A model generated the notes under the pieces. The model saw nothing but the letters and a program-made list of their open reading frames with translations, searched no databases and had not been told where the DNA came from. A DNA stretch of 64,000 bases from a virus, in IMG/VR virus record IMGVR_UViG_3300042523_000478, positions 1 through 64,000 of that record. The stretch is one strand, 5' to 3'. Position 1 is the first letter of the stretch; every line of letters begins with the position of its first letter. Below are positions 95 through 64,000 of this stretch, one piece after another. A program made the position numbers and the translations under genes.

Positions 95-1066
95 TTAGTC
101 GTTGAAGACCTCAAAAGTTAATGTTCCATTAGAACAAAATTGATTTACTAAATTGGTCGACATTTCTAAAAGAACAGTACTATCTCCACCATCAGAGTAT
201 GTCCCTAAATAACTCATATCTGGTTCAGAGTTTAAGTAAATTATAAGTTCTGACATATCATTTACTGTACCATCCCCGTAAAGTGATTGAATGAAATTTC
301 CATTACAAAACAAAGCAATACTAGTAAGAGTAATAGGAAAAGATGTTTCTACAGTTCCACTTATTACAATTGGTGTAGTATCAGTATCTTGTAGAATTTG
401 AATCTGGACTGGAAAATAATATAAATTATCAGCAACTGTGTCAAATATTTCCGTATCAACAACCGCAACAAAAATTATGTCATCTTTCTCGTTTACAAAA
501 CTTACAGGACCTATAAAAGTCTCTAATAAGTTAGGCTCAAGTCCAAAAAACGATATTGAATTTCCACCACCTAAAACAAATGTTGTGTTTCTATTAAAAG
601 TATTATACAATGGTCCTGTGATTGAATTAAATCCTAAATAAACTCCTGCTCCAATCTCACCAGTAACCCACTCAATATCATAACCTAAATTATTTTCTAA
701 TACTTTCACCACTAAATTACCACTAGATTCTAAAGTAGAACCGTTACTCCAATTTGTTGGTGTTTCTCCTGTTGCAATAAATTCACATCCCGTTGTGTCT
801 ATAACTCCACTCGTTACATTAGCGACATTACTAAAACTATCACCACTAACATAATCGGTTATTGTATAGGTTTCGCCTATAATTAAACCATCATTAAAAT
901 CATTTAAGGTTGTACCGGTCTGAGAACCTAACTGAGTTAGTAGTGCTTTATAGGTTGCTAAATTTCCTGTTGTAACTCCGGTAACACTTAAATTTCCGTT
1001 GATAGTTATATCACCATCTATTGTTTGACCTGATAAGTTATTTACTATGTATTTTGTTGTTGCCAT
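95..1066 (-). CDS. putative virion structural / fibre-associated protein
   Basis: 323-aa T/G/S/N-rich beta-type sequence; IDGDITINGNLSVTG fibre-like segment; several [ST]GxT motifs. Confidence 0.55.
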   Translation of the reverse strand: MATTKYIVNNLSGQTIDGDITINGNLSVTGVTTGNLATYKALLTQLGSQTGTTLNDFNDGLIIGETYTITDYVSGDSFSNVANVTSGVIDTTGCEFIATGETPTNWSNGSTLESSGNLVVKVLENNLGYDIEWVTGEIGAGVYLGFNSITGPLYNTFNRNTTFVLGGGNSISFFGLEPNLLETFIGPVSFVNEKDDIIFVAVVDTEIFDTVADNLYYFPVQIQILQDTDTTPIVISGTVETSFPITLTSIALFCNGNFIQSLYGDGTVNDMSELIIYLNSEPDMSYLGTYSDGGDSTVLLEMSTNLVNQFCSNGTLTFEVFND

Positions 1067-1068
1067 TA

Positions 1069-3528
1069 TTATTCATTTATATCTTTTATTGTTAATACAT
1101 CACTTCCGTCGTAGTAAGATAACCTATCTGTTAATGCAGAATTTTTAAAAATATTACAAGTATACAACTCATAAACCGATGGTGTTTGACTAACACTAGA
1201 AACCGTAATAATAACATTATCAACACCATCAGTCCCACCAATTTGACTACCTAGTATTGTTATTGTATCACCAATAACATATAGTTTACCTGAATTATTT
1301 ACACTAACATTAATAACACTTCCACTAACCACATCAATTTGAAATAATGCGTTAACACCTATGCCATTAGTTGTACCACCAACATTACCATATGACGAAT
1401 CAGTTGCGGTGCTACCAGTTGAAGTATAAGTAATACCACTTATGTTTCCATAATTTGTGGTGAAATCAATATTATCTACATAGGTATTAACAATATTCCA
1501 TTGGAATGAATCGCCTATTGTGTTATTGTAAAAGTTATCAGGAATAGTATTATTGTAGAAATATTCACCGACGGTATTATCTGTAAAATCATTCCCAATT
1601 CTATTTCCTTGATTACTACTACCACCAAAACCAAATCCATCTTGTACATCATTAGAATTGAAATTAGTTCCTATTGTGTTGTACGAAAATACACCATAAC
1701 AAGTATTAAATGAAAAATTATCACCAATATTGTTATGTATTGTGATACCACTAAAAGAATTAGGTGAACACCCAAATCCTATATTATTATAACCAAACTC
1801 CTCAAATATATCATTACCCTTAAAATCTGTTTTAATTTGGTTACTCCAAAAATCCCCTTGAATGTCGTTACCCTTAAAATTATTCATAATTTGGTTGTTC
1901 TCAAAAAGAAGACCTAAATTATCAACTGCACCAATTGTGTTTAGGCTAAAATCATTTAATATTGAATTTTTTTTAAACACAATATATATGGTATTAGTGT
2001 TAAAATTATTTAAAATGTTGTTGTATTGAAAATTAACTTTAATTATATTATCTTCAAAAATGTTTCCAACTCTATTAGCCCTAAAATCATATGTTCCAAT
2101 AGTTAAGACGGTTCCAATTGTATTATTTACAAAAACGTGTTCAATAGTATTTTCGTAGAACTCTGAATATATGGTGTTACCATTATATCCATTCCCAATT
2201 AAATTACGATAAAATAGTGAATAACTTTCATTTTGATTATATCCATTACCAATATCATTATTATAGAAGTCATTATAAATTTTATTATTATTAAACTGAT
2301 TTCCTATTTCATTATTTTGAAAATCTGAATTAGTCCAAACATTATTATTAAAATCATTTCCAATATTGTTTCTATAAAAAGAAAACCCTAGTAAAATATT
2401 ATTGTTAAAATCACTACCAATTCTGTTGTTATTAAAATTAGAGGTGATATAGTTGTTATTAAAATTTTCACCAATTATATTTCCATCAAAATCGTCATTC
2501 GTTGAGTTTTTATAAAAACTATCTCCTATTTGATTATTATCACAATCATGATTAAATGTGTTATTATAAGAACCGTCACCTATGGTGTTGTTTATGTATG
2601 ACCCTGAAATAAAGACATTGTTTGCCAAAATAAATGGGTTCAAAAACGACCCAAGTGATAAATTTGAGTAGTTACCAACATAGTTATTAATTGCGTCACT
2701 AAATGTTGTGTATTCAAAAACTTGATCTTGTCTTACATTAGGTTGGTAATAACTCATTACACCATCATCATTTCCAGAATAATAAGGTGAGTCGGTAGTT
2801 ACACTTATTGTTACACCTGATATAATCGCCAAAGAATTGCTCACAACAGATATAACTTCAAAAAATGAAGGACTTAAATTTCGTATCGAAACAATCGACC
2901 CTGAACCAAAATTTGAGTTAAATGTTGTACCAGTATTACCATATAATACACCAGTTGTCCCTGTTAAACCACTTATTCCAACAAGACCACCTAATGGACT
3001 ATTTTCGTTATATGAATATCCATTATATCTTTTAAATAAAATACTTCTGTTATCATAATCAGTTCTATTATTAAAGTTATCAATTCTTTCAGTGATTCTA
3101 CCTTTTGCAGGACTGCTGGTTACTTCAGTTGTATTCCAAGTTATGTCGTATGTTATTTTATCATTAGTGTATAATGTAGAATATACAGTAGGTGAAAATC
3201 CCGTTGTGGATATTGCCAATAATAAAATTGGCTCTGTTGTTCCTGTTTTATAGTTACCCGTAGTAATAGGGGTTTTAGTATTATCATAATTTGGTTGGTC
3301 GTAACACGTTTGGAAGTCAGTCATCAAATAATAACTTCCAGCGGTTAGTGTTCCACCTGTTGCGAATGAATATAAATCATTGTAAGTTCCTTCGTTATAG
3401 TTTGAATTAGTGAAAGCGGAATATGATATATGATATGTATCCCCACTTAACTCTACGGGAAATAATGTATCCGTTGTTACTTCCGAAAGGTATGTTAGTT
3501 GTCCAATTGTTTTTCCTGTTAATGCCAT
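1069..3528 (-). CDS. putative tail fibre/spike with Asn-ladder beta-helix repeats
   Basis: 819 aa; fibre-anchor-like N-terminus (KTIGQLTYLSEVTTDTLFPV); many roughly 11-residue F-x-x-N-x-I-G-N repeats. Confidence 0.65.
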   Translation of the reverse strand: MALTGKTIGQLTYLSEVTTDTLFPVELSGDTYHISYSAFTNSNYNEGTYNDLYSFATGGTLTAGSYYLMTDFQTCYDQPNYDNTKTPITTGNYKTGTTEPILLLAISTTGFSPTVYSTLYTNDKITYDITWNTTEVTSSPAKGRITERIDNFNNRTDYDNRSILFKRYNGYSYNENSPLGGLVGISGLTGTTGVLYGNTGTTFNSNFGSGSIVSIRNLSPSFFEVISVVSNSLAIISGVTISVTTDSPYYSGNDDGVMSYYQPNVRQDQVFEYTTFSDAINNYVGNYSNLSLGSFLNPFILANNVFISGSYINNTIGDGSYNNTFNHDCDNNQIGDSFYKNSTNDDFDGNIIGENFNNNYITSNFNNNRIGSDFNNNILLGFSFYRNNIGNDFNNNVWTNSDFQNNEIGNQFNNNKIYNDFYNNDIGNGYNQNESYSLFYRNLIGNGYNGNTIYSEFYENTIEHVFVNNTIGTVLTIGTYDFRANRVGNIFEDNIIKVNFQYNNILNNFNTNTIYIVFKKNSILNDFSLNTIGAVDNLGLLFENNQIMNNFKGNDIQGDFWSNQIKTDFKGNDIFEEFGYNNIGFGCSPNSFSGITIHNNIGDNFSFNTCYGVFSYNTIGTNFNSNDVQDGFGFGGSSNQGNRIGNDFTDNTVGEYFYNNTIPDNFYNNTIGDSFQWNIVNTYVDNIDFTTNYGNISGITYTSTGSTATDSSYGNVGGTTNGIGVNALFQIDVVSGSVINVSVNNSGKLYVIGDTITILGSQIGGTDGVDNVIITVSSVSQTPSVYELYTCNIFKNSALTDRLSYYDGSDVLTIKDINE

Positions 3529-3541
3529 AATCTTTTTATTT

Positions 3542-3567: not shown

Positions 3568-4569
3568 TTATTGGTATTTTAAATATTCTTCATTACCGGT
3601 AGATATATATTCATTATTATTTGTAATAATTGCATTATTTAAAATATCTGGACTCGGTGTAGAAGTAGGAGTAGGGGTATTTGTAGGAGTAGGTGTCGGT
3701 GTAGGAGTATTTGTTGGTGTCGGTGTAGGAGTATTTGTAGGTGTTGGTGTTGGTGTTTGTGGGTAGTATTCAATTATTTCCCACTCTAAATTACTAGGGA
3801 CAACGAATATACTACCAAATTGGTCGTTTCTAGTTAAATTATCAAAATTTTCATTTATTGTAACTTGTGTTAATCCAGTTAAACTTCCGCTAGGAATTAT
3901 CACTCCAGAATTTATGGATATTGGAGATCCACTATAAACACCAAGAATGTGATTAAAGGACATTGCAATGTCTTGGTCAACAATTTTATTTGATGTTAAA
4001 ACATAGTCAATAATAACAGAACCTGATATTATGATTACCTCAAGTATTACAGATAATGGGGCGGGTGTTGGACTTGGTGTTGATGTTGGACTTGGTGTTG
4101 GTGGGATGTAACATTGGGTTGTTGTGGTTGTAGTTAACGGATAAACCGGTGTTGTGACACAACAAGGGAATTCAGTAACATAACAACTACTATACTCCAA
4201 ATCATCCGCAATAAAACTTTCCTGAACATTAATATATAATTTATCTCTAATTGGTAAAATTAAAACTCCCTGGTCATTTCTAAATAAAAATTGTCCCTCA
4301 TATCTACCTTCTTTTCTTGTGTCATTTCCGGTAAATTGGTAATAAACATAATATTCTGGTTCGGCATTTGAATCTAATAATACTTTATTAACAAATCCTG
4401 CTGGTCTTGTGTTTATTCTTGGAATCCCTGTTGCGGTATCAACCATTGAAAAGAATATTGCAGATTCCTCAATAGTGTCCATCATTAAGTTAAAGTCGCT
4501 TCTTCCGTCCTTAACTACTTGCATTTTCAATAAAGGGAGAGTTGCGTTTTTTTTAATAAAAAATTCCAT
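3568..4569 (-). CDS. putative virion protein: BppU-like N-terminal domain plus Pro-Thr repeats
   Basis: FFIKKNATLPLLKMQ...YQFTGNDTRKEGRYEGQF resembles a baseplate upper-protein N-domain; TTTTTT and (PT)n tracts. Confidence 0.55.
   Translation of the reverse strand: MEFFIKKNATLPLLKMQVVKDGRSDFNLMMDTIEESAIFFSMVDTATGIPRINTRPAGFVNKVLLDSNAEPEYYVYYQFTGNDTRKEGRYEGQFLFRNDQGVLILPIRDKLYINVQESFIADDLEYSSCYVTEFPCCVTTPVYPLTTTTTTQCYIPPTPSPTSTPSPTPAPLSVILEVIIISGSVIIDYVLTSNKIVDQDIAMSFNHILGVYSGSPISINSGVIIPSGSLTGLTQVTINENFDNLTRNDQFGSIFVVPSNLEWEIIEYYPQTPTPTPTNTPTPTPTNTPTPTPTPTNTPTPTSTPSPDILNNAIITNNNEYISTGNEEYLKYQ
3652..3762 (-). repeat. (Pro-Thr)n / PTPTN mucin-like coding repeat
   Basis: PQTPTPTPTNTPTPTPTNTPTPTPTPTNTPTPTSTPSP. 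Confidence 0.9.
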
Positions 4570-7576: not shown

Positions 7577-7798
7577 TTAACATTCATAATAGTGAAATAT
7601 TTCACACCCATTAAAGTCAACTAATTTAATTAGTAATGAATTAACATCATCTAAAGGGGGAGGTACAATAAATGTTACCGATGGTGGCATACTTGTTGAT
7701 CCAGATATTAAATAACAATATGAATTAGTACTATCACAAAGATATATATCATATGGTGATGTACCTGTTGTTCCGGATATTTCTATTTGATGTAACAT
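7577..7798 (-). CDS. small beta-rich putative virion protein
   Basis: 73 aa; ISGTTGTSPY...ISGST; KLVDFNGCE SprB-like end; preceded by TATTTATA. Confidence 0.6.
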   Translation of the reverse strand: MLHQIEISGTTGTSPYDIYLCDSTNSYCYLISGSTSMPPSVTFIVPPPLDDVNSLLIKLVDFNGCEIFHYYEC

Positions 7799-7816: not shown

Positions 7817-8794
7817 TTATAACCCAAATCTTGATTTAGTTGAGTTCCAAATTGAGGTAATTTCAGGTTCGCCTAAATCAGTATCAAATATGTCTACTAT
7901 TGCTAATCTACCGCCCCAATAATCGGCTAAATCCCATCGTTCCATTAATCGTATACCGGCACCTGATGATGTTGGTGTTCCGACATAAGATGTACTATCA
8001 ACTAATATACTATTAACATATAATTTAACAGTTGATCCATCATATGTTCCAACAATATAATACCAATTATTAGCGGTTAATGAATAACCATCGGTAACTC
8101 TCCATCCACCATTAAAGAACCCTGAACTAAAACCACCATTATTTTTACCAAGTGAATAATTTATACCTCCACCAATAAAAGTTTCAGTTACGATACAAGG
8201 TGCGCTACCTGTCTCTGTTCCGGTATAATAATGCCAAACACCAACTGTCCAAGTACTCATACTTGGTAAGCTTGTATTACATATTGCGTATTGAGATGAT
8301 GATGAAACAAAATTAAAGTATCCTCCATTGCTTGAAGACCAAGTAGGTGAATTAGTTAAAGTAAATGATTTACCCCCAATAGAATCAATCCAAGGTCCTG
8401 ACCCTGAATAATCCGCAGCATCCAAAGATAATACGGGTGAAGTAAGTGTTGAATATGAGTTCCAATACCCATTTGTTGTTAATCCTGTTGATGCGTCAGG
8501 TGCGTTATTATAATTTGAGTTTAAAAGTATGTTTGTAATATCAATAAATTCATTGTCATCAAAACCATTTGTTCTAAAAAATCCAACTGAACCTGTTACG
8601 CCAGGTACTGGTGTTGGTTGACTATCATCAGGAACAGGTTGTGCGATCACATAACCCAAATCCTCATCGGGTCCGTTCCACCACTCCATCCCTGTGAATC
8701 CGGATGTAGGAAACCCTACCGCTAAATTACCAACCTGAATTGTTCCTGATATTGTTGATCCTGTATTATACGAAAAAGGTCTTGTTGTTGCCAT
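7817..8794 (-). CDS. LamG/concanavalin A-like lectin domain virion protein
   Basis: LSLDAADYSGSG.W, NGGYFNF, WYYIVGTYDGSTVKLYVN, C-terminal WNSTKSRFGL typical of phage LamG proteins. Confidence 0.8.
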   Translation of the reverse strand: MATTRPFSYNTGSTISGTIQVGNLAVGFPTSGFTGMEWWNGPDEDLGYVIAQPVPDDSQPTPVPGVTGSVGFFRTNGFDDNEFIDITNILLNSNYNNAPDASTGLTTNGYWNSYSTLTSPVLSLDAADYSGSGPWIDSIGGKSFTLTNSPTWSSSNGGYFNFVSSSSQYAICNTSLPSMSTWTVGVWHYYTGTETGSAPCIVTETFIGGGINYSLGKNNGGFSSGFFNGGWRVTDGYSLTANNWYYIVGTYDGSTVKLYVNSILVDSTSYVGTPTSSGAGIRLMERWDLADYWGGRLAIVDIFDTDLGEPEITSIWNSTKSRFGL

Positions 8795-9762: not shown

Positions 9763-9813
9763 TCTATAATAATATGAACTTCACAATTAAAATGTATGTT
9801 TTATTTTTATAGT

Positions 9814-12800
9814 ATGAAAAAAACTAAAATAGTTTTAATAAGTTCTTATTGTGATACCAAAGAAAAAATTGATGTTTTAATAAATACCATCAAATCCGTT
9901 AAGAGTTACAATTTAGATGTAATGGTAAATAGTCCTTTACCCTTACCTTCCGATGTGATAAATATGTGTGATTTTTATGTGCAAACAAAAGAAAACCCAT
10001 TACTTAATTGGCCCGAAAAATCTGTTATGTCTTGGGTAAGACATACGGACAAAGATAAAGAAATTGTGATTAAAAGATCTGTAATTGATTATGGGTGGGC
10101 GGGACTTTACCAAACTAAAAAATTATCTGAATATGCTTTAACTTATGACTATGACAGATATTATCATATTATATATGATACGGAAATTGATGATACGGTG
10201 GTTTCTACTTTTTTATCTGATAAAATATGTAACTTTTTTCCATTTCATGAACACAAAGTTAGTTTACATTTAATTGCGTTAGACAGAGAAAACCTATTGA
10301 AATTTTCAAATCTGATTACTTTTGATAGTTACCTTAAATTTAATTGTATAGTTGAGAACTGGCTTTATGATACTCTAATTAATAGTAATCTGGATTATAA
10401 AATTGAATTAGAAAAAATTGATGATTTAATATTATTTCATAAAGACGAAAATTTATTTGATTACTCTGATATTAATGGTTTAGTTTTTTTTATAGTTAAA
10501 GATGTTGTAAATAATGATGAGGTTTGTTTATATTTTTACAATAATAAAGAAAAAATAAATGTTTTAATTACCGTAGATGGTGTCGAGTCCTCTTATGATA
10601 TATCCAATAGGGATATCATTAATTTAGGGTTTAAACCATGCAATATAAAAAATGTTTTAATATCTTATGATGGAATATCATCGGATATAACAGAAAAAAT
10701 AAAAAATATTATCCACAATGTTATTGAAATTATTATGAATAAATCAAAAATTAAACTATTATATCTTACACCACACCTATCAACAGGTGGAATGCCTCAA
10801 TTTGTATTAAAAAGAATTCAAGAACTCCAAAAATACAAAGACCAAATTGAAATATTTTTGGTTGAGTATTCTCAGTTTAGTAACACATACGTTGTCCAAC
10901 GAGATAAAATAATTAATCTATTAGGTGAAGGTCATTTTTTTAGTTTAGGTGATACAACCAACACAAAAAGAAAATATGAGTTAATTGATATTATTAAAAA
11001 CAATGATATTGATATTGTCCATTCTGAAGAAATGTTAGAAGGATTTGAAAGTTTTAATAAAATTCCACTACCATTGTTAAATCAACTTTATTCAAATGAT
11101 AGGTCTTGGAAAATGGTTGAGACTTGTCATAATGTTTGGTTTAATCCGCAAACACATAAAAAGTTCAATCCTGAAGCGTATTGTTTTGTTACCCCTTATC
11201 ATTTAAAGGAAACGTTTTTAAATGAAACACCAATTAAGTTTTTATCGTTATACCCAATTGAGAATAAGGTAACTAAAATTTTAGAGGAGAATGAAATCTA
11301 TGGTGATTTTAATCAAGTACCACTTATTGAAAAAATTAAAGTAAGAAATGAACTTGGTTTGGATATGTTTAAAACTCACGTACTTAATGTTGGGTTATGG
11401 ACAAGTGGTAAAAATCAAGGTGAAGGTGTTGAGGTTGCAAGAGAATTAATTGAATCAAATCCAGATATTGAATTCCATTTTATTGGGAACCAAGCTCCAA
11501 ACTTTGAAGACTATTGGGGTCCAATAATGAATAATTTACCATCAAACGTAAAAGTATGGGGTGAGCGTAATGACGTTGAAAAATTCATGACGGCTTGTGA
11601 TGTTTTAATGTTTAACTCAACTTGGGAATGTAATCCGTTGGTTGTTAGAGAATCAATCAACTATGGAATGAAAATCCTTGCAAGAGATTTACCACAATAC
11701 ATGGGTATGTTTGATGGATATATAACACCAATAGAAGGTGATGTTAAAAACATATCAAAACAATTGGTTGGACTTATCGAAAATAAGGACGTTTATAAAA
11801 TATTACCTGATAATACATTTGGTGAAGATTTATTAAATTTTTATAACGCAGTTACAAATATAAAAATTACCCAAAACAAACCATTAACCAAAGATTATAC
11901 TTTTGTTAGACATTATGTTAATCAACCTTATTTTGAGGTACAAGGAACCACAGAAAACAAATTGAACATTAAATATTATGATGATAACAATAATGTTAAT
12001 TATCAGAACGAATTATCAATTAATAGTTGGGTTAAATTAAATAAAGAATACTTTATTAAATGGAGAACAACGGTTGAAGAAAATGGTGAAATCATTTACG
12101 ATGAGACTTTAAATTTAAAAGATAAACGAGTATATATTTCTTTTGGATCAAAATCATTAGGAGATACAATGGCTTGGATTCCTTATTGTGAGGTATTTAG
12201 AAAAAAACATGGTTGTCAACTTATAGTATCAACATTCCTTAATAGTTTGTTTAAAGACCAATATCCTGATATTGAATTTGTTGAACCTGGTGATTTGGTA
12301 ACTAATATACATGCACAATATAGATTAGGTTGGTTTTACAATGAAGATGGTAAATTTGATGCAAACAAACACCCATTTGATTTTAAGAAAATGCCATTAC
12401 AAAAAACTGCAACCGATATATTAGGTTTAGATTATGAAGAAGTTAGACCACTATTAAAATTACCTGATACACCTAAAAAGAAAAAAGTTGGTATTGGGTT
12501 TCACTCAACTGCACAATCAAAATATTGGAACAACCCTGACGGATGGCAAACAGTTATAGACCATCTTAATAATTTGGGATATGAATGTATGGTCTATTCT
12601 AAAGAAGGTGATGGATATATGAATAACCATTATCCTGAAGGTGTAACAATATTTAAAGGAGGTAACCTACAAGAAGTAATTGATGACCTATCAAGTTGTG
12701 AGTTCTTTATTGGTTTAGGGTCTGGTTTATCTTGGTTGGCTTGGGCTTGTAAATTACCTGTCGTTTTGATTTCAGGATTTAGTGAGAAATGGGCGGAAAC

Positions 12801-14289
12801 AACTTTAGATACATACAGAGTTATTAACGAAAGTGTTTGTCATGGATGTTTTAACTCAGATAGATTAGATGCTGGTGATTGGAATTGGTGTCCACTACAT
12901 AAGAATACGGATCGGATGTTTGAATGTACAAAAGAAATAAGTTCCGATATGGTTATTAAAGAAATAAATAAAATAATTAACAAAGAATTTAATAGTGATT
13001 TAGTTACTATTATATTGTCCCATGCAAACACAAAAGAAAAAAGAAAAATTTTAATAGAACATTTAAAAACAATTAACACAAAAATACTACTATCAACAAA
13101 TTACCCAATTGATGATGAAATTAAAGTTTTATGTGATTACGTCATATATGATGAGGATAACCCAATATTATTGAAGGAGGATTTTAATAAGTATAACGTG
13201 TCTTTTTATTTTTATAGTGTCAGAAAAGGGGTTGAGGTAAGGGAGTCTTTTGATTATGAACATGGGTATGCCGTTTATAAATTAATACAAAATGGATTAA
13301 CTGAATCAAAAAAATTAGGATTTAAATATTCTCATATTATAAATTACGATTATTTAATAAACAAAAATACATTACAAGATAATTATAAATTATTAGAAAA
13401 TTACGATTCCGTATTTTATAGATATAAAAATAAATCATATACGCAAGACTCATACTGTACTGGATTTTTTACAGGAAAAATAGATAAGTTAATTAAACCA
13501 TTTACCCACTATAACACAAAAGACGAATATTATAATTATGACGGGTATAATAAAATATTAGAAATAATAACAAAAGATGCGGTAAAAAAACAAAACTTAA
13601 ATGTTAAAGAACTTTTTTATGAAGATTTAATGGAAACATCAATTGTTAATAGAGTAGACGATAACCACAAAAATAACAAAGAAGTAATGGAAGAAAACGA
13701 ATTCAAAAAAATAAGTGATTATTATAATTGCGATAAAACATCCACACACACATACCATAACGTCTATTCAAAAATATTTGAAGGGATAAGAGATGAGGTA
13801 TTTTCGTTATTAGAAATCGGAATTCATGAGGGAGCATCTTTAAATGTTTGGAGAGACTATTTGAAGAATGCTAATATATATGGTTTAGATATCAATAGGG
13901 AATTTTCACATGATAGGGGTCATATTTTTAAAGGAGACCAAAATAACTTATTTGATTTAGAAAAAATCACATCAGAAATAAAAAGTTGTAAAGTCATAAT
14001 TGATGATGCTTCCCATAATCCACAACATCAAATTAAAACCTTTAATTATCTTTTTGAGAATTTATTAGAAGATGGTGGGTACTATATTATTGAAGACGTT
14101 GAAACGTCGTATTGGGATCCATTATCTGAATTATATGGGTATGAAATTGGTTATTTAAATGTTGTTGATTATTTTAGTAAATTAACACATAATGTTAATT
14201 ACAAATACAATGGATTTAATAATACTTTAAAAATTGAAAGCATTTTATTTACATCAAATTGTATTGTGATAAAAAAATTAATGAAATAA
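9814..14289 (+). CDS. multidomain glycan-modifying enzyme: GT-A-like, GT4, Aah/TibC-like, second GT-A-like and O-methyltransferase domains
   Basis: HLSTGGMPQ...KNQG...CDVLMFNSTWECNPLV (GT4); SLGDTMAW...GLGSGLSWLAW...CHGCFN...CP...EC (Aah/TibC-like); CDK...LLEIGI..GAS...IIDDASH (MycE-like methyltransferase). ATG 9814 preferred over 9796. Confidence 0.8.
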   Translation: MKKTKIVLISSYCDTKEKIDVLINTIKSVKSYNLDVMVNSPLPLPSDVINMCDFYVQTKENPLLNWPEKSVMSWVRHTDKDKEIVIKRSVIDYGWAGLYQTKKLSEYALTYDYDRYYHIIYDTEIDDTVVSTFLSDKICNFFPFHEHKVSLHLIALDRENLLKFSNLITFDSYLKFNCIVENWLYDTLINSNLDYKIELEKIDDLILFHKDENLFDYSDINGLVFFIVKDVVNNDEVCLYFYNNKEKINVLITVDGVESSYDISNRDIINLGFKPCNIKNVLISYDGISSDITEKIKNIIHNVIEIIMNKSKIKLLYLTPHLSTGGMPQFVLKRIQELQKYKDQIEIFLVEYSQFSNTYVVQRDKIINLLGEGHFFSLGDTTNTKRKYELIDIIKNNDIDIVHSEEMLEGFESFNKIPLPLLNQLYSNDRSWKMVETCHNVWFNPQTHKKFNPEAYCFVTPYHLKETFLNETPIKFLSLYPIENKVTKILEENEIYGDFNQVPLIEKIKVRNELGLDMFKTHVLNVGLWTSGKNQGEGVEVARELIESNPDIEFHFIGNQAPNFEDYWGPIMNNLPSNVKVWGERNDVEKFMTACDVLMFNSTWECNPLVVRESINYGMKILARDLPQYMGMFDGYITPIEGDVKNISKQLVGLIENKDVYKILPDNTFGEDLLNFYNAVTNIKITQNKPLTKDYTFVRHYVNQPYFEVQGTTENKLNIKYYDDNNNVNYQNELSINSWVKLNKEYFIKWRTTVEENGEIIYDETLNLKDKRVYISFGSKSLGDTMAWIPYCEVFRKKHGCQLIVSTFLNSLFKDQYPDIEFVEPGDLVTNIHAQYRLGWFYNEDGKFDANKHPFDFKKMPLQKTATDILGLDYEEVRPLLKLPDTPKKKKVGIGFHSTAQSKYWNNPDGWQTVIDHLNNLGYECMVYSKEGDGYMNNHYPEGVTIFKGGNLQEVIDDLSSCEFFIGLGSGLSWLAWACKLPVVLISGFSEKWAETTLDTYRVINESVCHGCFNSDRLDAGDWNWCPLHKNTDRMFECTKEISSDMVIKEINKIINKEFNSDLVTIILSHANTKEKRKILIEHLKTINTKILLSTNYPIDDEIKVLCDYVIYDEDNPILLKEDFNKYNVSFYFYSVRKGVEVRESFDYEHGYAVYKLIQNGLTESKKLGFKYSHIINYDYLINKNTLQDNYKLLENYDSVFYRYKNKSYTQDSYCTGFFTGKIDKLIKPFTHYNTKDEYYNYDGYNKILEIITKDAVKKQNLNVKELFYEDLMETSIVNRVDDNHKNNKEVMEENEFKKISDYYNCDKTSTHTYHNVYSKIFEGIRDEVFSLLEIGIHEGASLNVWRDYLKNANIYGLDINREFSHDRGHIFKGDQNNLFDLEKITSEIKSCKVIIDDASHNPQHQIKTFNYLFENLLEDGGYYIIEDVETSYWDPLSELYGYEIGYLNVVDYFSKLTHNVNYKYNGFNNTLKIESILFTSNCIVIKKLMK

Positions 14290-25903: not shown

Positions 25904-25908
25904 AATTA

Positions 25909-26790: not shown

Positions 26791-26810
26791 AATTTTATTA
26801 TATAAATTAA

Positions 26811-42225: not shown

Positions 42226-42939
42226 ATGAGAGTTGCGTTAGTTTGCATTGCAAAAAATGAAGAATTATATATCCAAGAGTGGATTGATTATAATAAAAAA
42301 TTAGGGTTTGATGATATAATCATTTACCAAAATGACTGGAGATGGTCAGGTGAGAACGATAACGTTCATAAAATAGATTTTGATGGGTTAAATAAACAAA
42401 GAGACGCATATAATCACTTTATTAAACATAATGTTAATAATTTTGATTGGGTTGCATTTTTTGATGTTGATGAGTTTTTAGTTTTAAAAAAACATGATAA
42501 TATCAAATCTTTTCTTTCCGACTATGAGGAATTTCCGGCCGTAGGAATAAATTGGGTGTTATTTGGTGATAATGGACATAAAACCGTTAACGGTGATTAT
42601 AACGTAGTAAAAAGATTTACTAAAAGACAGAAAGATGTGAATTTACACGTTAAATGTATTGTAAAATTAACACCAACAACACATATGAGTGTTCATAACC
42701 CGAGTTCTGTTTGGGTTGACACCCATAAACGACAAAATACAGGTCCATTTACTCAAATACACACTGACGATATTGCGCAGATAAACCACTATTTTTGTAA
42801 AACACAAGAGGAATTCCAATTAAAATGTGACAGAGGTAGGGCAGATATGTTTAATACTAAACGAAACATAGGTGAGTTTGAACCTCACAACACTAACGAC
42901 ACGGAAGACTTAACCGCATATAATTTCTTTTACAAATGA
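42226..42939 (+). CDS. GT2/GT92-like glycosyltransferase
   Basis: CIAKNEELYIQEWI, GFDDIIIY, WVAFFDVDEF, INHYFCKT. Confidence 0.8.
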   Translation: MRVALVCIAKNEELYIQEWIDYNKKLGFDDIIIYQNDWRWSGENDNVHKIDFDGLNKQRDAYNHFIKHNVNNFDWVAFFDVDEFLVLKKHDNIKSFLSDYEEFPAVGINWVLFGDNGHKTVNGDYNVVKRFTKRQKDVNLHVKCIVKLTPTTHMSVHNPSSVWVDTHKRQNTGPFTQIHTDDIAQINHYFCKTQEEFQLKCDRGRADMFNTKRNIGEFEPHNTNDTEDLTAYNFFYK

Positions 42940-51625: not shown

Positions 51626-52687
51626 ATGAACTCAGAACAAGTAAAAAAACTAGAGAAATCAATCCAAAGTATGAAGGATAAAAAATCTCGTTTGTATTTT
51701 ATAGTACAAGATACTAAAGGAAATGCTAGGGCTTCTGTTAGATATACTTATCAGATGGCAATGACACTTAAAAAAAACGGTTATAACCCAATTATATTAC
51801 ACGAAAATAAAGAATATTTTGGTGTTGGTAGTTGGTTAGGTGAAGAATATATGTCCGAACTCCCACATAAATCAATTGATGATGGAAACTTAGAAATTTC
51901 TCCGGATGACCTTTTAATTATTCCAGAAATATTTGGTTACATTATGGAACAAGTTAAAAATTTACCTTGTGGTAAAGTTGTTTTAACTCAAGCATATGAC
52001 CATATTTTTGAAACTTTACAACCTGGTCAAAGTTGGACTCAGATGAGTTTTTATAAATGTATTACTACATCAGAAAAACAAAAAGAACGTATTGACACTC
52101 TAATGAGAAAAATTTCATTTGACATTATTGAACCGGTTATTTCTGAAGTTTTTGAAAAATCAGAGTTTCCACCTAAAACAATTATCTCAATTCACACTAG
52201 AGACCAAAGAGATACTGCCAACATTATAAAACAATTCTACGTTAGATTCCCACAATATAGATGGATAACATTTAGAGATTTAAGAGGTCTAACTGAAACT
52301 GAATTTGCAAATGCACTTAAAGATAGTTTCTTATCTGTCTGGGTAGATGAAACTAGTGGGTTTGGTACCTTTCCTCTTGAATCAATGAAGATGGGAGTTC
52401 CGGTAATTGGTCTAGTACCTAATTTGCAACCGGAATGGTTAAATGAAGATAACGGACTATGGTTAGTTAATAAAAACTCAATGGTGGATGTTATTTCAGA
52501 TTTTGTCCAAAATTGGTTAGAGGATAATGTTAACCCTGAATTATATACTTTTATGAAAAAAACCTCGTCTGAATATTCAGATATGTCAAAGTTTGAATCT
52601 CGCGTTTTGGAAGTGTTCTCAAACATGATAGAAACAAGAATGAAAACATTTGAAGAACAATTAACTAAATTTGAAACAATAGAATAA
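51626..52687 (+). CDS. GT-B (GT4-like) glycosyltransferase
   Basis: DLLIIPE, SGFGTFPLESMKMGVPVIG. Confidence 0.7.
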   Translation: MNSEQVKKLEKSIQSMKDKKSRLYFIVQDTKGNARASVRYTYQMAMTLKKNGYNPIILHENKEYFGVGSWLGEEYMSELPHKSIDDGNLEISPDDLLIIPEIFGYIMEQVKNLPCGKVVLTQAYDHIFETLQPGQSWTQMSFYKCITTSEKQKERIDTLMRKISFDIIEPVISEVFEKSEFPPKTIISIHTRDQRDTANIIKQFYVRFPQYRWITFRDLRGLTETEFANALKDSFLSVWVDETSGFGTFPLESMKMGVPVIGLVPNLQPEWLNEDNGLWLVNKNSMVDVISDFVQNWLEDNVNPELYTFMKKTSSEYSDMSKFESRVLEVFSNMIETRMKTFEEQLTKFETIE

Positions 52688-52688
52688 T

Positions 52689-53495
52689 ATGGAAACAAAA
52701 AACACTATTTCGGTTATCTTACCAATTAAAACAGGTAATGTATTTGGCTTTGATGATTATTTCACTAAAGCAATCACCTCACTTAAAAACCAAACTGGAT
52801 TGGTTGACGAACTAATCATTGTCCATACTGGAGAATCTACATTCTTAAATTTTGTAAAGGATTTTGATTTTGAAGGTCTAAACGTTATTATTGAACAATA
52901 CGATGAAGACCCTAATTTTGCGTCTCAAGTTAATTACGGTATTGAGAAAGCAACTTCTGAATGGGTATCTATTTTAGAATTTGATGATGAGTACTCCAAC
53001 ATTTGGTTTAAAAATGCAAAAAACTATATGGGAATTTATGGAGATGTGGACGCATTTTTACCAATAGTTGTTGACGTTAACGATAAAGGGGTGTTTGTAG
53101 GATTTACAAACGAAGCCACATTTGCGGCAAACTTCACATCGGAAATGGGAATTTTAACTAATGAAACATTACTTACATATCAAAACTTCCAAATCTCAGG
53201 AATGTTAATTAAAAAAGAAAAATATGTTAAATTTGGTATGATTAAACCATCTTTTAGATTAACCTTTGGTTATGAGTTCTTATTAAGAATGACACATAAT
53301 TCACTTAAATTTATGGCAATCCCTAAAATTGGTTATAAACATATGAATTTAAGAGAGGGGTCAATTTTTTGGAACTATAAAAATGGTGATGATAGACTTT
53401 CTGAAGATGAGGTTAAGTTCTGGGTTGAGTCGGCAAAAAAAGAATATCTATATATTAAAGATAGAGACATAAAATATGAACCACAAGAAGTTTAA
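52689..53495 (+). CDS. GT2 family glycosyltransferase
   Basis: ISVILPI, VNYGI, WVSILEFDD. Confidence 0.75.
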   Translation: METKNTISVILPIKTGNVFGFDDYFTKAITSLKNQTGLVDELIIVHTGESTFLNFVKDFDFEGLNVIIEQYDEDPNFASQVNYGIEKATSEWVSILEFDDEYSNIWFKNAKNYMGIYGDVDAFLPIVVDVNDKGVFVGFTNEATFAANFTSEMGILTNETLLTYQNFQISGMLIKKEKYVKFGMIKPSFRLTFGYEFLLRMTHNSLKFMAIPKIGYKHMNLREGSIFWNYKNGDDRLSEDEVKFWVESAKKEYLYIKDRDIKYEPQEV

Positions 53496-56630: not shown

Positions 56631-56843
56631 ATGGAAAATAATATAGAAACAAATAAAATAGTAGAAATCATAACTGAATATAAAGTAAGACCAAAAAAAG
56701 ATCTTGAATTTGCTATGGATTTTATTAATGAAGATTTTGAAAAAACAAAAAATGTTGTTTTAAAAATGACAAAACATTTAGATAAGTTAGAGACAACTTA
56801 TAATAGTTTATTAAAGGAGTACAACTCAAGAAATGGAAGATAA
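56631..56843 (+). CDS. small coiled-coil hypothetical protein
   Basis: 70 aa, tightly packed in operon. Confidence 0.6.
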   Translation: MENNIETNKIVEIITEYKVRPKKDLEFAMDFINEDFEKTKNVVLKMTKHLDKLETTYNSLLKEYNSRNGR

Positions 56844-58335
56844 AAGAATTATAATATCCGGTAAAGTTTTAGATAATGTCGACCCACTAATGTTGGGTAG
56901 ACTTAGGGTATTACCAAAAATTGATAATCAATTACAAGCACTCCCAGTAGATTGGAATGCATCTAAAGATATATGGACTTATAAAGACCCTTTTGTTTTT
57001 TTACCATTAATACCATACTACATTAGTCAGGTTCCAAGAGTGGGTGAATATGTTCACGTTATGTATGCAACTCGTGATGAAATAAGGGGGGCAAACAAAT
57101 TCTACATACAAGGTCCTGTAAGTCGTCCTTGGAACAATTATTTTGAATCTTATGATAACTCCCAATCTATGTTAGACAATGGAGTTTACATAAAACAAGC
57201 AAAGGACGTTAGAAACAAACTTACCGGAGAAATTGATGTGGACATACGTGGGGTATATCCGGAACCTGGAGATAACGCAATTTTAGGTAGAGGAACATCG
57301 GACCTATTAATTAAACAAGAAGATATTATTTTAAGGTCTGGAAAATATATTAAATCACCAAATAAAGAAATACCAACATCAAACGATCTTAGGTCATTTG
57401 TTCAATTATCAAATTATACTTTAGAAAGGGTTGATGATGGAGCAATGAGTTTAAATGTTGATTTTTATGTTGACCAAGAAGTTAAAAACTTTGTTGAGTG
57501 GTCAATAACCGGAGTAGATACCACTTTAAATATTATGAGTGGGTATGTTCAAACTAATAGTGTTAAACCAACGGATTCAACAAAAGTTTTAAATTTTGCA
57601 ATTAATACCGGAACAACATCTAATTGTATTCCTGTTCCAGGTTCAAAAATGGAGTTTACCGGTTTTACCGCATTACAAGTAAGTTCTTTAGTTAATCAAT
57701 ATATTAGAGGATTCAATAGAGGTAAAGTTACAATACCTGGATATAAAGATTATCCAAATAATGGAATATTGAATCAACAATTCCCATTTGTTTTTGGTCC
57801 AAACGTAAGTACAAATGAAAAATTATTAAGTAATGATGTAATAGTATCTAATTTAATAACAACAGTTTTTAATGAAATAAAATTAAATGAAGTTAATAGT
57901 GAGTCAGGGTTTGCAGTTGTTTGGGATAAAGATACCGTAGGACCTCAAAAAGTTTCTAAGGAAACTATTGTAGAAAAAATAAAGTATCTTGAGAGACCTG
58001 TAACATATGGATTAATGGGTGGTGATTATCTTTATTTATTGTCTCACAGAGCAGAAAATCCAAATAGAAATATTTTTAATTTAAAAGATACCTTATATGG
58101 AATATCTCAGGAAAAAATCCTTGACGATATAAAACCAAACACAAGTTCTATGGTTAGAGGTGAGGAACTTATAGATTTTCTAAAACTAATTGTTGACTTT
58201 ATTCAGGCTCATACTCACAACATTAATGAGGCTCCAATACAAGAACCATTACAAGGAGTTAAAATTTCAGACATAACAACCGCATTAGCAAATGCAGAAA
58301 AAACAATTTTAAATCAAAATATTCGAATTAATTGA
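56833..58335 (+). CDS. baseplate hub/central spike protein (gp5/VgrG-like)
   Basis: GKVLDNVDPLMLGRLRV...VPRVGEYV OB-fold; C-terminal VRGEEL...AHTHN (HxH tip motif). Confidence 0.7.
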   Translation: MEDKRIIISGKVLDNVDPLMLGRLRVLPKIDNQLQALPVDWNASKDIWTYKDPFVFLPLIPYYISQVPRVGEYVHVMYATRDEIRGANKFYIQGPVSRPWNNYFESYDNSQSMLDNGVYIKQAKDVRNKLTGEIDVDIRGVYPEPGDNAILGRGTSDLLIKQEDIILRSGKYIKSPNKEIPTSNDLRSFVQLSNYTLERVDDGAMSLNVDFYVDQEVKNFVEWSITGVDTTLNIMSGYVQTNSVKPTDSTKVLNFAINTGTTSNCIPVPGSKMEFTGFTALQVSSLVNQYIRGFNRGKVTIPGYKDYPNNGILNQQFPFVFGPNVSTNEKLLSNDVIVSNLITTVFNEIKLNEVNSESGFAVVWDKDTVGPQKVSKETIVEKIKYLERPVTYGLMGGDYLYLLSHRAENPNRNIFNLKDTLYGISQEKILDDIKPNTSSMVRGEELIDFLKLIVDFIQAHTHNINEAPIQEPLQGVKISDITTALANAEKTILNQNIRIN

Positions 58336-58343
58336 TATTTATA
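58336..58343 (+). promoter_or_regulatory. putative phage late promoter TATTTATA
   Basis: tgaTATTTATAttaaaaaagtaaATG. Confidence 0.55.
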
Positions 58344-58355
58344 TTAAAAAAGTAA

Positions 58356-59819
58356 ATGTCAATTCACAACTCTTATTTTAGTAGGAATAACACTATCGTC
58401 TACAGTGGTTTAACAAATACGGGAAGAAATCCTATTGTTGAGTTGTACTATGGTGACGGTGATGTTAAAATCCCAATTGGATTCTCAAGATTTATATTTA
58501 ATATAGACCTTACAGAATTACAGGAAAAGTATCAACAAGGAATTATTACAACAGGCGTAACCTGTTTTGATAATGTTAAACACACTTTAAGGATGGTTAA
58601 TACCTCTTTTTTTGATAGGGATTTTTTAAATACAAAGACCGCATCAGAAATGGAAAGAGCAACTTCATTTGATTTAATTTTGTGGAGAATACCTTATGAG
58701 GATTTTAACGAAACAAAACCACAAACTTGGGATGAAGGTGTTGGTTATGATTTCACAGATGTACAGTCATTACCTGGAGATAGAAATTATTCTGTAAGAC
58801 CATCTAACTGGGTTCAAAGAGAAACTTTATATGATTGGGAACAACAAGGAATTTATGATAATACAAATTCTGGTGTTTTTAATTTTTCGGCATTAACCAT
58901 TGTTGATATACAACATTTTGAATTTGGGGATGAGAACATTGAGTTTGATATGACAAATGATATAAATTCAATTATACAAGGTAATTTTGTTAACCCTGTT
59001 GGTTGGGGAATTTCATATTTACCCCAATTAGAAAATTTAACTGGGACAACCGCACCTTATTATGTTGGGTTCTTTTCAAGACATACTCAGACATTTTATG
59101 AACCAAGATTAGAAACTGTATATGACGATTTAATTGAGGATGATAGGAATACTTTTTCTTTAGGTAAAACAAACAAACTTTACCTTTACTCTTTTGAAGA
59201 TGGTAGTTTTCAAAATCTTGATGAAAATCCTTTTGTCACTATTAAGGATCAAACTGGGACTGCAATTCCAGGATTAATTAATCTACCCACATGTCAAAGA
59301 ACACAAGGGGTTTATGAGGTTACAATACCTCCACTTATTGGATACCACACACCTTGTATATTCACAGATACTTGGTCTAATATAAAGTTAAATGGATTTT
59401 CATTACCTAATGTGGTTAATGAGTTTGTAATTTACCCAATTAAAAAATCCATACAACTTACAACAACAACTAATGAACCAGCAACATATGGTTTTGATTT
59501 TTATGGTGTTAAACAAGATGAAAAAATATTAAACACCGATATTAGAAAAGTTAGCGTAATTATTAAACAAGCTTTTACAACTAATAAACAACTACCAAAA
59601 GTAGAAGGTTTTTATCGTGTTTATGTTAGAGAAGGTCAAACAGAAGTTCAAGTTCAAGATTGGACAAAATTAAATAGAACATCAAATGAATATTATTTTA
59701 TTTTTGATATGAGAGATAAAATACCAAATGAGTATTATGTTGATTTAAAAGTTATTTCAAGTGGTGAGATAAATACATTTAAAAGAACAATAAAATTCCA
59801 GATTGTGAATAAAAAATAA
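58356..59819 (+). CDS. putative virion structural protein
   Basis: 487 aa; NTGRNPIVEL, SRFIF, WDEGVG, FFSRHTQTFYEP; late element upstream. Confidence 0.55.
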   Translation: MSIHNSYFSRNNTIVYSGLTNTGRNPIVELYYGDGDVKIPIGFSRFIFNIDLTELQEKYQQGIITTGVTCFDNVKHTLRMVNTSFFDRDFLNTKTASEMERATSFDLILWRIPYEDFNETKPQTWDEGVGYDFTDVQSLPGDRNYSVRPSNWVQRETLYDWEQQGIYDNTNSGVFNFSALTIVDIQHFEFGDENIEFDMTNDINSIIQGNFVNPVGWGISYLPQLENLTGTTAPYYVGFFSRHTQTFYEPRLETVYDDLIEDDRNTFSLGKTNKLYLYSFEDGSFQNLDENPFVTIKDQTGTAIPGLINLPTCQRTQGVYEVTIPPLIGYHTPCIFTDTWSNIKLNGFSLPNVVNEFVIYPIKKSIQLTTTTNEPATYGFDFYGVKQDEKILNTDIRKVSVIIKQAFTTNKQLPKVEGFYRVYVREGQTEVQVQDWTKLNRTSNEYYFIFDMRDKIPNEYYVDLKVISSGEINTFKRTIKFQIVNKK

Positions 59820-59879
59820 TGTCAAGTAACACAATTAAATATGGTAACATTAGGTGGTTCTGATGGATTAAACAATTAA
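59819..59879 (+). pseudogene. 3' remnant of a paralog of the 59909..60076 gene
   Basis: 59823-59879 reads QVTQLNMVTLGGSDGLNN*, versus TVTQLNMVVLGGPDGLNS* at the end of the next ORF. Confidence 0.7.
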
Positions 59880-59885
59880 ACAATA

Positions 59886-59893
59886 TATTTATA
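59886..59893 (+). promoter_or_regulatory. putative phage late promoter TATTTATA
   Basis: aataTATTTATAtaaaaacaaataaaaATG. Confidence 0.55.
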
Positions 59894-59908
59894 TAAAAAC
59901 AAATAAAA

Positions 59909-60076
59909 ATGGGAGAATCAAGCGCAAATACTGAAGTTACAATATGTATTGAATTATGTGACCAATCTGTGGTGTCAGTAACACCACCTCACCCCGTATG
60001 GTCCGATTTAACGGGTGGTACGGTAACTCAATTGAATATGGTAGTTCTTGGAGGTCCGGATGGATTAAATTCGTAA
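59909..60076 (+). CDS. 55-aa small protein, absent from the ORF track
   Basis: MGESSANTEVTICIELCDQSVVSVTPPHPVWSDLTGGTVTQLNMVVLGGPDGLNS; own late element and A-rich leader. Confidence 0.7.
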   Translation: MGESSANTEVTICIELCDQSVVSVTPPHPVWSDLTGGTVTQLNMVVLGGPDGLNS

Positions 60077-62971: not shown

Positions 62972-62998
62972 AAAAAGGGACAATAAATTGTCCCTTTT
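62971..62998. terminator. bidirectional intrinsic terminator
   Basis: aaaaaagggacaat-aa-attgtccctttt perfect inverted repeat between convergent genes. Confidence 0.8.
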
Positions 62999-63022
62999 GA
63001 GTGTAATACTTTAAGATTTTGA

Positions 63023-64000
63023 TTATCTCAATTCTCTTAAATCAAATGTACGAACACCATCTACGGTAATTCTTCCGTAAAATCTGTTGTTTACCATTTT
63101 TTTCGCGTATCTCGTCATTATTCCTTTAATCGGAGTAAAGTTGAACGGATTGTACATTGTAGGTGTTAATTGTAGAGGTACGTACGGTGCGTAGATGTAA
63201 CCTGTGTCTAACAATGATGTTCCTTTATGTCCTAACAAAACTGTGTTTGGTGGGAAGTAAGGGTCACGGTAAACTTGGTAACGTCCTGCAAGAGTACCAA
63301 CTCTTTCAATACCCATATTGTATTGGTCTTGTTCAGGAGATGCGTTAGATACGTGGAAGTATTCTAAATCATCAAAGATTGCAGAAACCTCAGAAGAAAC
63401 AACGATCCAGTTAGCTCCACCTCTTAAAGTAGATTTGTGGATTTGTGCTGACAACTGATTGATTGCCGTAATCAAAGTTTGATTCCAATCTTTTTGAGTA
63501 TAAGATGTAGTTTGAGCAATTCTTCTCCATCCGTTGTAATCCCAACGTAGGTTCCAAGCCGCTCCTTTTCTCAAGTCACGTAAAATTTCACGGTCAATTT
63601 CAGCGGCCACTTGTTCTGACAATAAAGCCGTCAATTCAGCTTCAGCGTCAATGTTGTGGAATGCCGCAACGTCTTGTGCCATTTCTGGAGACCATTGTGC
63701 TCTTAATTTTCTTTCAGATACAGAAACAGTTACTGATTCTAAATCAAAAGAAACCTCACCAATTTGGTCTTCAAACTCCATATTTTTGTAAGTTCTATAG
63801 ATAGAAGTAAATGAATTACCTGAATGTCCTGAATAAATTGTAGTACCTGTGTAACCATCTAAAGATGTTGAGTCACAGTCAGCACATACAGGACAAGAAA
63901 GGTCAACTTCAACGTAGATGTAACCATTAGCGTCACAAATATCGTAGTAAGAACCACCATTACCTGTTGTTGGCCAAGTTGTTGACGCTTGATTACCGTA
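63023..64000 (-). CDS. major capsid protein (T4 gp23-like), 5' end outside the window
   Basis: RKLRAQWSPEMAQD..AFHNIDAEAELT..LSEQVAAEIDREI, RGGANW, YAPYVPL, F.P.KGIMTRY; the frame stays open from 63781 to 64000. Confidence 0.95.
   Translation of the reverse strand, partial: YGNQASTTWPTTGNGGSYYDICDANGYIYVEVDLSCPVCADCDSTSLDGYTGTTIYSGHSGNSFTSIYRTYKNMEFEDQIGEVSFDLESVTVSVSERKLRAQWSPEMAQDVAAFHNIDAEAELTALLSEQVAAEIDREILRDLRKGAAWNLRWDYNGWRRIAQTTSYTQKDWNQTLITAINQLSAQIHKSTLRGGANWIVVSSEVSAIFDDLEYFHVSNASPEQDQYNMGIERVGTLAGRYQVYRDPYFPPNTVLLGHKGTSLLDTGYIYAPYVPLQLTPTMYNPFNFTPIKGIMTRYAKKMVNNRFYGRITVDGVRTFDLRELR

Follow-up and report, generated by a model that had tools for sequence, protein, structure and literature searches.

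An [S/T]-G-x-T motif enriched in fibre-like proteins of an uncultured jumbo phage clade

The stretch of DNA analysed here (the window) is the first 64 kb (64,000 nucleotides) of the 92-kb IMG/VR record IMGVR_UViG_3300042523_000478, which is estimated to be 31% complete and comes from an uncultured T4-like jumbo phage of ~290 kb; a near-identical relative is a 292-kb contig. Across the window (~30% GC), transferase genes alternate with open reading frames (ORFs) whose products are fibre-like and carry copies of a short motif, [S/T]-G-x-T, with serine or threonine at position 0, glycine, any residue, and threonine at position +3. The transferases include GT2, GT-B/GT1-like, GT8, and GT9 enzymes, a PF11397 N-acetylglucosamine (GlcNAc) transferase, and an HtrL-like protein; at least 12 glycosyltransferase-like genes are interspersed with the motif-carrier genes, and FkbM/CmcI-type methyltransferases, an epimerase, a sulfotransferase, and an APS kinase are encoded as well. 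The nearest catalogued relatives of the capsid protein, at 42–46% identity, are those of two uncultured huge phages, Flavobacterium phage immuto, and Microcystis phage Mel-JY01, and megablast and tblastn gave almost no match to cultured phages. A first-pass annotation of the window had read the motif as a mark of virion proteins and a candidate acceptor signal for a phage O-glycosyltransferase. We confirm the enrichment, find it to be specific and shared by the whole clade across many protein families, and weigh what it may mean.

Expected counts were taken from 1000 composition-matched shuffles of each whole protein. The 13 putative structural ORFs (6187 amino acids [aa]) together hold 80 copies against 18.2 expected (4.4x, z=14), an excess that was unaltered when shuffling was confined to 20- or 10-residue windows, and the other 42 ORFs, mostly enzymes, hold 5 against 3.6 (1.4x, z 0.8). 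The earlier remark that the motif is rare in enzymes thus stands, and all of the motif peptides listed by the annotation were found in the genes to which it had assigned them. Seven rearrangements of the motif's own residues reached 0.6–1.7x, and in the structural ORFs there was no enrichment of [ST]G.S (0.7x), [ST]G.[VI] (1.1x), or [ST]G.N (0.07x). Threonine stands at +3 after 43% of all [ST]G dipeptides and also dominates position 0 (55 TG.T versus 25 SG.T). When gapped tripeptides were scanned without bias and with the 1362-aa, 550-aa, and giant ORFs excluded, TG.T came first after (Pro-Thr)n linkers, with 26 copies against 4.0 expected (p=2e-13). Read as a DNA pattern, the motif is seen 80 times in the coding frame and at most 4 times in any other frame, with mixed codons; the signal acts at the protein level, and a DNA-level origin was rejected on these grounds, as an artefact of composition or local composition was by the local shuffles and the scan without repeat-rich ORFs.

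The 1362-aa repeat protein accounts for 34 of the 80 copies, and together with its 550-aa paralogue for 41 (Table 1). Significance at p<=3e-6 is reached by each of three families of the window itself, and in six carrier ORFs a copy falls among the first 17 residues. The motif marks fibre-like and adhesin-like proteins and not virion proteins generally, because the head module is at chance (portal, 1 versus 0.26; capsid, Table 1) and the giant Gly-X-Y ORF is depleted; all ORFs in the 60–92 kb part of the record together hold 4 copies versus ~4.5. The annotation's assignment to virion proteins at large therefore holds for the fibre-like ORFs but not for the head proteins or the Gly-X-Y protein. 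Searches of Pfam and PHROG returned no family for most of the carriers, and so it is from their composition, a LamG domain, a tail-fibre match in tblastn, and a weak tailspike-like fold that we infer them to be virion proteins. The sole exception among the enzymes is the 503-aa GT2 enzyme, which has 2 copies versus 0.16 (38 versus 6.9 over 48 homologues), both conserved; the copy at residue 280 lies at what we take to be the position of the conserved GT2 Asp-Gly-Ser-Thr signature.

Table 1. Motif carriers, transferases, and other features of the window, with [S/T]-G-x-T counts observed versus expected from shuffling
Feature	Coordinates	Strand	Motif copies	Remarks
323-aa fibre-like ORF	95..1066	-	4 vs 0.96	Residues 12, 29, 50, 99; no Pfam/PHROG family
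819-aa tailspike-like ORF	1069..3528	-	11 vs 1.67 (z 7.2)	8 copies in first 240 residues
333-aa Pro-Thr-rich ORF	3568..4569	-	1 vs 0.40	Not enriched
73-aa ORF	7577..7798	-	2 vs 0.06	
325-aa LamG-domain ORF	7817..8794	-	3 vs 1.10	All copies N-terminal to LamG
1497-aa multidomain transferase	9796..14289	+	None	GT1, TibC/BAHT-like, and methyltransferase fusion
2803-aa Gly-X-Y (Gly-Thr-x) protein	14369..22780	-	7 vs 73	Depleted
307-aa ORF with (Pro-Thr)n linker	22793..23716	-	3 vs 0.78	
550-aa fibre ORF	28551..30203	-	7 vs 2.06	Paralogue of 1362-aa ORF by BLAST and hhalign
1362-aa fibre	30268..34356	-	34 vs 9.7 (z 8.1)	
728-aa Cys-rich ORF with (Pro-Thr)n linker	34465..36651	-	8 vs 0.85 (z 7.9)	
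404-aa GT-B-like transferase	39728..40942	+		Pfam Glyco_trans_1_4 E=7.6e-5, below curated cut-off; candidate writer, should the motif be a tag
503-aa double GT2 enzyme	42936..44447	+		Pfam GT2 families; clade core; genome profile as 404-aa enzyme
353-aa GT1-like ORF and 268-aa GT2 ORF	51626..53495 (51626..52687, 52689..53495)	+		Pfam; in G002, G003, G005, not in G001, G004
500-aa, 487-aa, and 55-aa ORFs	56833..60076	+	2 vs 0.23; 3 vs 0.44; 1 vs 0.13	
Gp23-type major capsid protein	63023..64000, cut by window end	-	1 vs 0.57 (full ORF)	Pfam Gp23 E=5.5e-63

Homologues of the window's genes are found in about 150 IMG/VR loci, and across them the excess is a property of whole families: 6.8x in the 819-aa family, 5.4x in the 728-aa family, 4.0x in the 323-aa family, and 4.1x in the 1362-aa family, with the enzyme families near or below 1x. 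Within the 819-aa family (40 homologues), sites are retained in 53–93% of members, except for two C-terminal sites retained in 15%; serine and threonine swap at position 0, the threonine at +3 is mostly kept, x varies, and fresh copies appear in variable and inserted segments. The motif residues are conserved only modestly better than other serine, threonine, and glycine residues. Three genomes, G002, G003, and G005, form an enriched clade with the window (capsid identity 71–87%) and have 8, 5, and 3 ORFs, respectively, at p<1e-3, several of which lack BLAST similarity to any other enriched ORF. The enriched groups include LamG proteins and SprB-repeat proteins. SprB repeats (PF13573) occur in motif-rich ORFs of relatives at L228:4211-6274 (-), where the match is above the Pfam cut-off, L229:12890-15088 (-), and L398:10544-12730 (-); this domain is characteristic of the gliding adhesins of Bacteroidota, a hint that the host belongs to that group. 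A further carrier, in a near-identical relative, is a 282-aa ORF at L194:2950-3798 (-) with a linker of seven tandem units of ~7 residues, Pro-Thr-Pro-Thr-Gly-Thr-Thr, so that its TGTT copies lie in a mucin-like tract that is probably disordered.

Eight genomes outside the clade served as controls: the phages T4, P-SSM7, immuto, Mel-JY01, LR756504, and LR756508, and two other jumbo phages, G001 (373 kb) and G004 (253 kb). In these the motif reaches 1.2–1.8x overall and 1.1–1.75x in Ser/Thr/Gly-rich ORFs; no genome has more than one ORF at p<1e-3, and because none shows multi-family enrichment we take the excess to be specific to the clade. A generic property of phage fibres is rejected in its strong form by the same comparison, although the fibre sets of other phages have 3–5x patterns of their own: SG.F is favoured 4.7x in immuto, mostly through one paralogue family, and IS.S 4.6x in Mel-JY01. 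Across 18 ORFs each, SG.T reaches 2.1x in P-SSM7 and TG.T 2.0x in G001.

Copies of the motif sit in proteins of quite different build. In an AlphaFold2 (AF2) model, the 819-aa ORF has an N-terminal domain followed by a predicted beta-helix built on a 9-residue Asn/Ile/Gly/Phe repeat; the long array, Asn-Asn-x-Ile-Gly-Asn-x-Phe-x, spans residues ~300-690 at a predicted local distance difference test score (pLDDT) of 85–95, and only one motif copy lies within it. Foldseek gave weak matches of this protein to phage tailspikes, and its residues 48-174 match a Clostridium phage tail fibre in tblastn. The LamG domain of the 325-aa ORF (Pfam Laminin_G_3, E=2e-16) covers residues 168-312. The repeat of the 1362-aa fibre is ~34 residues long, and its core consists of two hydrophobic residues, T-G-x-T, and an aromatic residue. 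The 728-aa family has dozens of invariant cysteines in CxxC-like clusters, and many of its members are 900–1900 aa long with additional C-terminal modules. (Pro-Thr)n linkers are common to three otherwise unrelated ORFs, at 3568-4569, 22793-23716, and 34465-36651 (all on the minus strand; hhalign probability 84–97%), and the PF11397 GlcNAc-transferase gene lies two genes away from the first of these.

How far the carriers acquired the motif separately depends on what is shared among them. The T-G-x-T-rich module of the 1362-aa fibre is also seen in other fibres. A homologue of the 819-aa protein, the 857-aa ORF of locus L009, is a mosaic fibre in which a 1362-type repeat is fused before an 819-family body: residues 38-131 share 45–58% identity with the 1362-aa repeat, and residues 126-769 share 77% with the 819-aa ORF. 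Judged by these alignments, the repeat is a mobile module, and single-linkage BLAST clustering joins the big families through mosaic proteins that bear it. Outside the module, the 819-aa and 728-aa proteins nevertheless have copies of their own in their bodies, and hidden homology between the carrier families was rejected, since BLAST and hhalign give only the 550/1362 paralogy and the (Pro-Thr)n linkers. The first-pass proposal that the motif arose independently in non-homologous proteins is therefore sustained for the main families but has to be qualified, as part of the distribution reflects a module shuffled between fibres.

The residues around the motif suggest a structural setting. Hydrophobic residues fill position -1 in 68% of copies (background, 37%), and +4 is often hydrophobic or aromatic. 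The AF2 monomer model of the 819-aa ORF (pLDDT 73.6) was read at the level of secondary structure, and that of the 728-aa ORF (pLDDT 41.8) was too poor for use. As modelled, the serine or threonine of ~7 of the 11 copies in the 819-aa protein would end a strand or helix or open the following coil, the glycine would lie in coil in ~8 of the 11, the final threonine would start the next strand in several, and two copies would fall within strands. Our tentative interpretation, which we hold with somewhat less than even confidence, is that the motif is a clade-specific structural element of strand, glycine turn, and strand, spread in part by a mobile fibre module. The string hydrophobic-[S/T]-G-x-T-(hydrophobic) would then recur as a building unit in this lineage's beta-rich fibre, tailspike, and lectin-like proteins; the hydrophobic residues at -1 and +4 would point to the core, the glycine would form a tight turn, and the two hydroxyl residues would border the turn on its exposed side; threonine may be favoured for its beta-strand propensity and for backbone hydrogen bonding. 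Two sources would account for the density of copies: recombination of the ~17–34-residue repeat module between fibre genes, and repeated use of the same turn by other families. Such a role would be compatible with the exposed hydroxyls also being modified.

Several observations agree with this structural interpretation: sites hold fixed positions while x varies, the motif is the core of the mobile 1362-aa repeat, a weaker excess of like kind is present in all eight outside phages, other fibre sets have 3–5x tripeptides of their own, and some copies lie inside SprB-repeat proteins. There are also points that weigh against it. If the turn were favoured on physical grounds, one clade should not show 4–7x and other phages 1.2–1.8x. 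In the clade, counting its three whole genomes and the fetched loci, p<1e-3 is reached by at least 12 BLAST-separate families, versus 0–1 ORFs per outside genome. Among the eight family alignments compared with hhalign, no homology was found between the main carrier families beyond the paralogy and linkers noted above. Beta-propensity alone fails to explain the threonine at +3 because [ST]G.[VI] is not enriched, and a beta-turn role is unlikely for the TGTT of the Pro-Thr linker of seven-residue units in L194. The structural setting itself is supported by a single monomer model of moderate confidence.

These same data fit about equally well with the motif being an acceptor tag for a clade-core transferase, in which the exposed serine or threonine beside a glycine turn would be modified and the threonine at +3 would serve as a recognition element, an explanation that is possible and that we hold in some doubt. 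O-glycosylation in the cytoplasm would precede or accompany fibre assembly and would be the work of one of four core transferases rather than the TibC-like enzyme, and a sugar coat would protect the fibres from proteases or adjust adsorption. A tag would account for a clade-specific excess across families without detectable homology and for its absence from enzymes and head proteins; it would also suit the interchange of serine and threonine at position 0, the largely kept threonine at +3, the fresh copies in variable or inserted segments, and the TGTT in the mucin-like Pro-Thr repeat of L194. The glycosyltransferase-like genes, methyltransferases, and sulfotransferase cassette interspersed with carrier genes point the same way, a bona fide protein O-glycosyltransferase homologue makes it plausible that the phage glycosylates proteins, and the sites of TibC in TibA are Ser-Gly in beta-helix loops (PMC4358343). 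However, the enriched genomes are one clade, so that none of the transferases tracks the motif beyond what shared descent would give, and the TibC-like, GT9, GT60, HtrL-like, GT8, and sulfotransferase genes are each present in a non-enriched genome or missing from an enriched one. TibC modifies serine and not threonine (PMC4358343), the selectivity of BAHT enzymes is described as structural and promiscuous (PMC5000012), and the conservation of the motif residues is only modestly above that of other serine, threonine, and glycine residues. The fullest form of the idea, a linear O-glycosylation sequon carried by at least 12 unrelated fibre or adhesin proteins in a jumbo-phage clade that is widespread in fresh water, and written by a core transferase and not by the TibC-like enzyme, we consider unlikely.

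The partner of the motif could instead be some other clade-specific factor, such as an assembly chaperone, a maturation protease, a kinase, or a sulfotransferase, or the motif could be a repeated ligand-contact element of adhesins. Clade-specific enrichment in many families argues for a lineage-specific partner of some kind, the window has a sulfotransferase and APS kinase cassette, and six carriers have a copy in their first 17 residues; yet no particular factor is indicated, and the sulfotransferase cassette occurs in the non-enriched G001 and is missing from the enriched G002, G003, and G005. We hold explanations of this kind to be improbable. We give scarcely any credence to the idea that composition, low complexity, a single repeat family, or a signal in the DNA itself yields the motif as a by-product. 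The concentration of copies in one repeat protein and its paralogue would be expected of such a by-product, but local shuffles give the same z, TG.T remains in excess without the 1362-aa, 550-aa, and giant ORFs, and the codons are mixed and the copies confined to the coding frame.

If the motif is an acceptor tag, the candidates for its writer can be narrowed by presence and absence across genomes. Four transferases (the 404-aa, 503-aa, 353-aa, and 268-aa enzymes of Table 1) are present in every enriched genome checked, that is, in the whole genomes G002, G003, and G005, and in none of the non-enriched ones. The 404-aa enzyme, for example, is present in 100 ORFs of the 728-gene loci and is 52–78% identical in the three enriched genomes; BLAST at E<=1e-5 found no counterpart in G001, G004, or any of the six control phages. 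This profile narrows the candidates without amounting to proof, because the enriched genomes form one clade. The GT60, HtrL-like, GT9, and GT8 enzymes and the sulfotransferase cassette were each rejected as necessary partners by the same profile. The cassette, at 23748-27719 on the minus strand, comprises a sulfotransferase, an APS kinase, a nucleotidyltransferase, a 293-aa ORF, and a 312-aa GT9 enzyme; it has counterparts of 38–66% identity in G001, a phage of a different capsid lineage (capsid identity 21%), and its genes are absent from the clade members G002, G003, and G005, so that it looks like a mobile cassette accompanying the TibC-like and collagen-like genes.

The TibC-like enzyme is the 1497-aa ORF, in which a GT1 domain (residues ~516-664) is followed by a TibC/BAHT-like domain (722-1060, ~11959-12975) and a C-terminal MycE/CmcI-like methyltransferase (~1305-1453). 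Against TibC (4RAP), residues 722-1060 score E=4.4e-70 / 3.9e-71 in phmmer over TibC residues 40-386, with homology across the beta-barrel, the catalytic lobes, and the insertions, and by sequence this is a true protein O-glycosyltransferase domain of the TibC/BAHT type. By the residue roles described for TibC (catalytic, iron-finger, and sugar pocket; PMC4358343), the domain keeps the catalytic base Asp110 and the iron-finger cysteines Cys339, 342, 358, and 370. The ADP-heptose-binding residues Thr226, Lys230, and Trp305 are also kept, but Arg286 is replaced by valine and the selectivity residue Pro300 by glycine, and because of these changes the donor sugar may not be ADP-heptose. TibC heptosylates serine and not threonine, and its sites in TibA are Ser-Gly in beta-helix loops, N-S-G-G-A and V-S-G-T-N (PMC4358343); BAHT selectivity has been described as structural and promiscuous (PMC5000012).

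The gene for this enzyme adjoins that of the 2803-aa Gly-X-Y protein, an arrangement that follows the BAHT pattern in which the enzyme gene neighbours that of its substrate. The annotation describes Ser-Gly-Thr-Asn runs for this protein, which would resemble the V-S-G-T-N site context of TibA. In a synteny set of 80 fetched loci (L194-L273) grouped by identity class, homologues of the two are paired in most classes, and the pairing with Pro-free Gly-X-Y genes holds even where the TibC-like domain is only 48–62% identical; other Ser/Thr/Gly-rich ORFs of distant loci with a TibC-like gene reach ~1.3x. The Gly-Thr-x register of the 2803-aa protein explains its depletion in the motif; all 7 copies are found in its ends, beyond the Gly-X-Y repeat. 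Four outside genomes (Mel-JY01, LR756504, G001, and G004) have the TibC-like gene without multi-family enrichment, and this together with the synteny makes the Gly-Thr-x protein, rather than the motif carriers, the likely partner or substrate of the TibC-like enzyme. That the same enzyme also writes the motif is accordingly not supported. The annotation's suggestion of an acceptor sequon for a phage O-glycosyltransferase is thus left with the many glycosyltransferases and the TibC/BAHT-type domain in its favour, but the TibC-like gene tracks the Gly-X-Y genes and also occurs in four genomes that lack the multi-family enrichment.

The two principal explanations have different consequences. We know of no sequon for phage virion glycosylation, and our literature search found no phage sequon of this kind described, so an acceptor sequon here would be the first if true. 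An acceptor tag would allow glycosylated virion proteins to be predicted from sequence in many uncultured lake phages, would provide defined peptide substrates for uncharacterised phage glycosyltransferases, and would extend phage self-glycosylation beyond the mycobacteriophage case. A purely structural motif would be a warning case: fibre sets can have strong lineage-specific biases in short motifs, 3–5x in several controls, and therefore enrichment beside transferase genes is not by itself evidence of a sequon. Either way, the TibC-like enzyme and the Pro-free collagen-like genes are a more concrete enzyme–substrate pair to test.

Among known systems, the nearest in enzyme is the action of TibC and Aah on TibA and AIDA-I (PDB 4RAP, 4RB4; PMC4358343), to which the phage corresponds in its strong TibC homologue with the catalytic aspartate and iron-finger cysteines. 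The Ser-Gly acceptors of BAHT enzymes in short loops between the beta-strands of beta-helical adhesins also resemble the hydrophobic-[S/T]-G-x-T setting. Unlike in the TibC system, threonine dominates position 0 here, the phage domain is part of a fusion with GT1 and methyltransferase domains, and two sugar-pocket residues differ (Arg286 to valine, Pro300 to glycine); unlike in the BAHT pairing, the phage gene tracks collagen-like Gly-Thr-x genes and not motif-rich ORFs. Mycobacteriophages, in work of Freeman and colleagues from 2023 in Cell Host Microbe (as cited in PMC12619734), reportedly encode glycosyltransferases that decorate their own virion proteins, with glycans said to lie at the C-termini of the subunits of capsid and tail tube and no mention of a four-residue internal motif; here, in contrast, the capsid is at chance and the carriers are fibre-like and known from sequence alone. 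The BclA protein of Bacillus is a threonine-rich collagen-like protein whose Gly-Pro-Thr repeats have O-glycosylated threonine, and T-G-x-T can be read as the Y-Gly-X-Y register of a Gly-X-Thr triplet, as in runs like S-G-L-T-G-T-T in the 819-aa and 550-aa ORFs. Most copies, however, are isolated, hydrophobic-flanked, and outside triple-helix repeats, and the phage's real collagen-like protein has a Gly-Thr-x register in which the motif is depleted. Generic glycine-turn repeats of fibres and SprB repeats (PF13573) share the short strand-Gly-strand units with polar flanks, but the excess described here is far stronger than in the six control and two other jumbo phages and is specific to threonine at +3.

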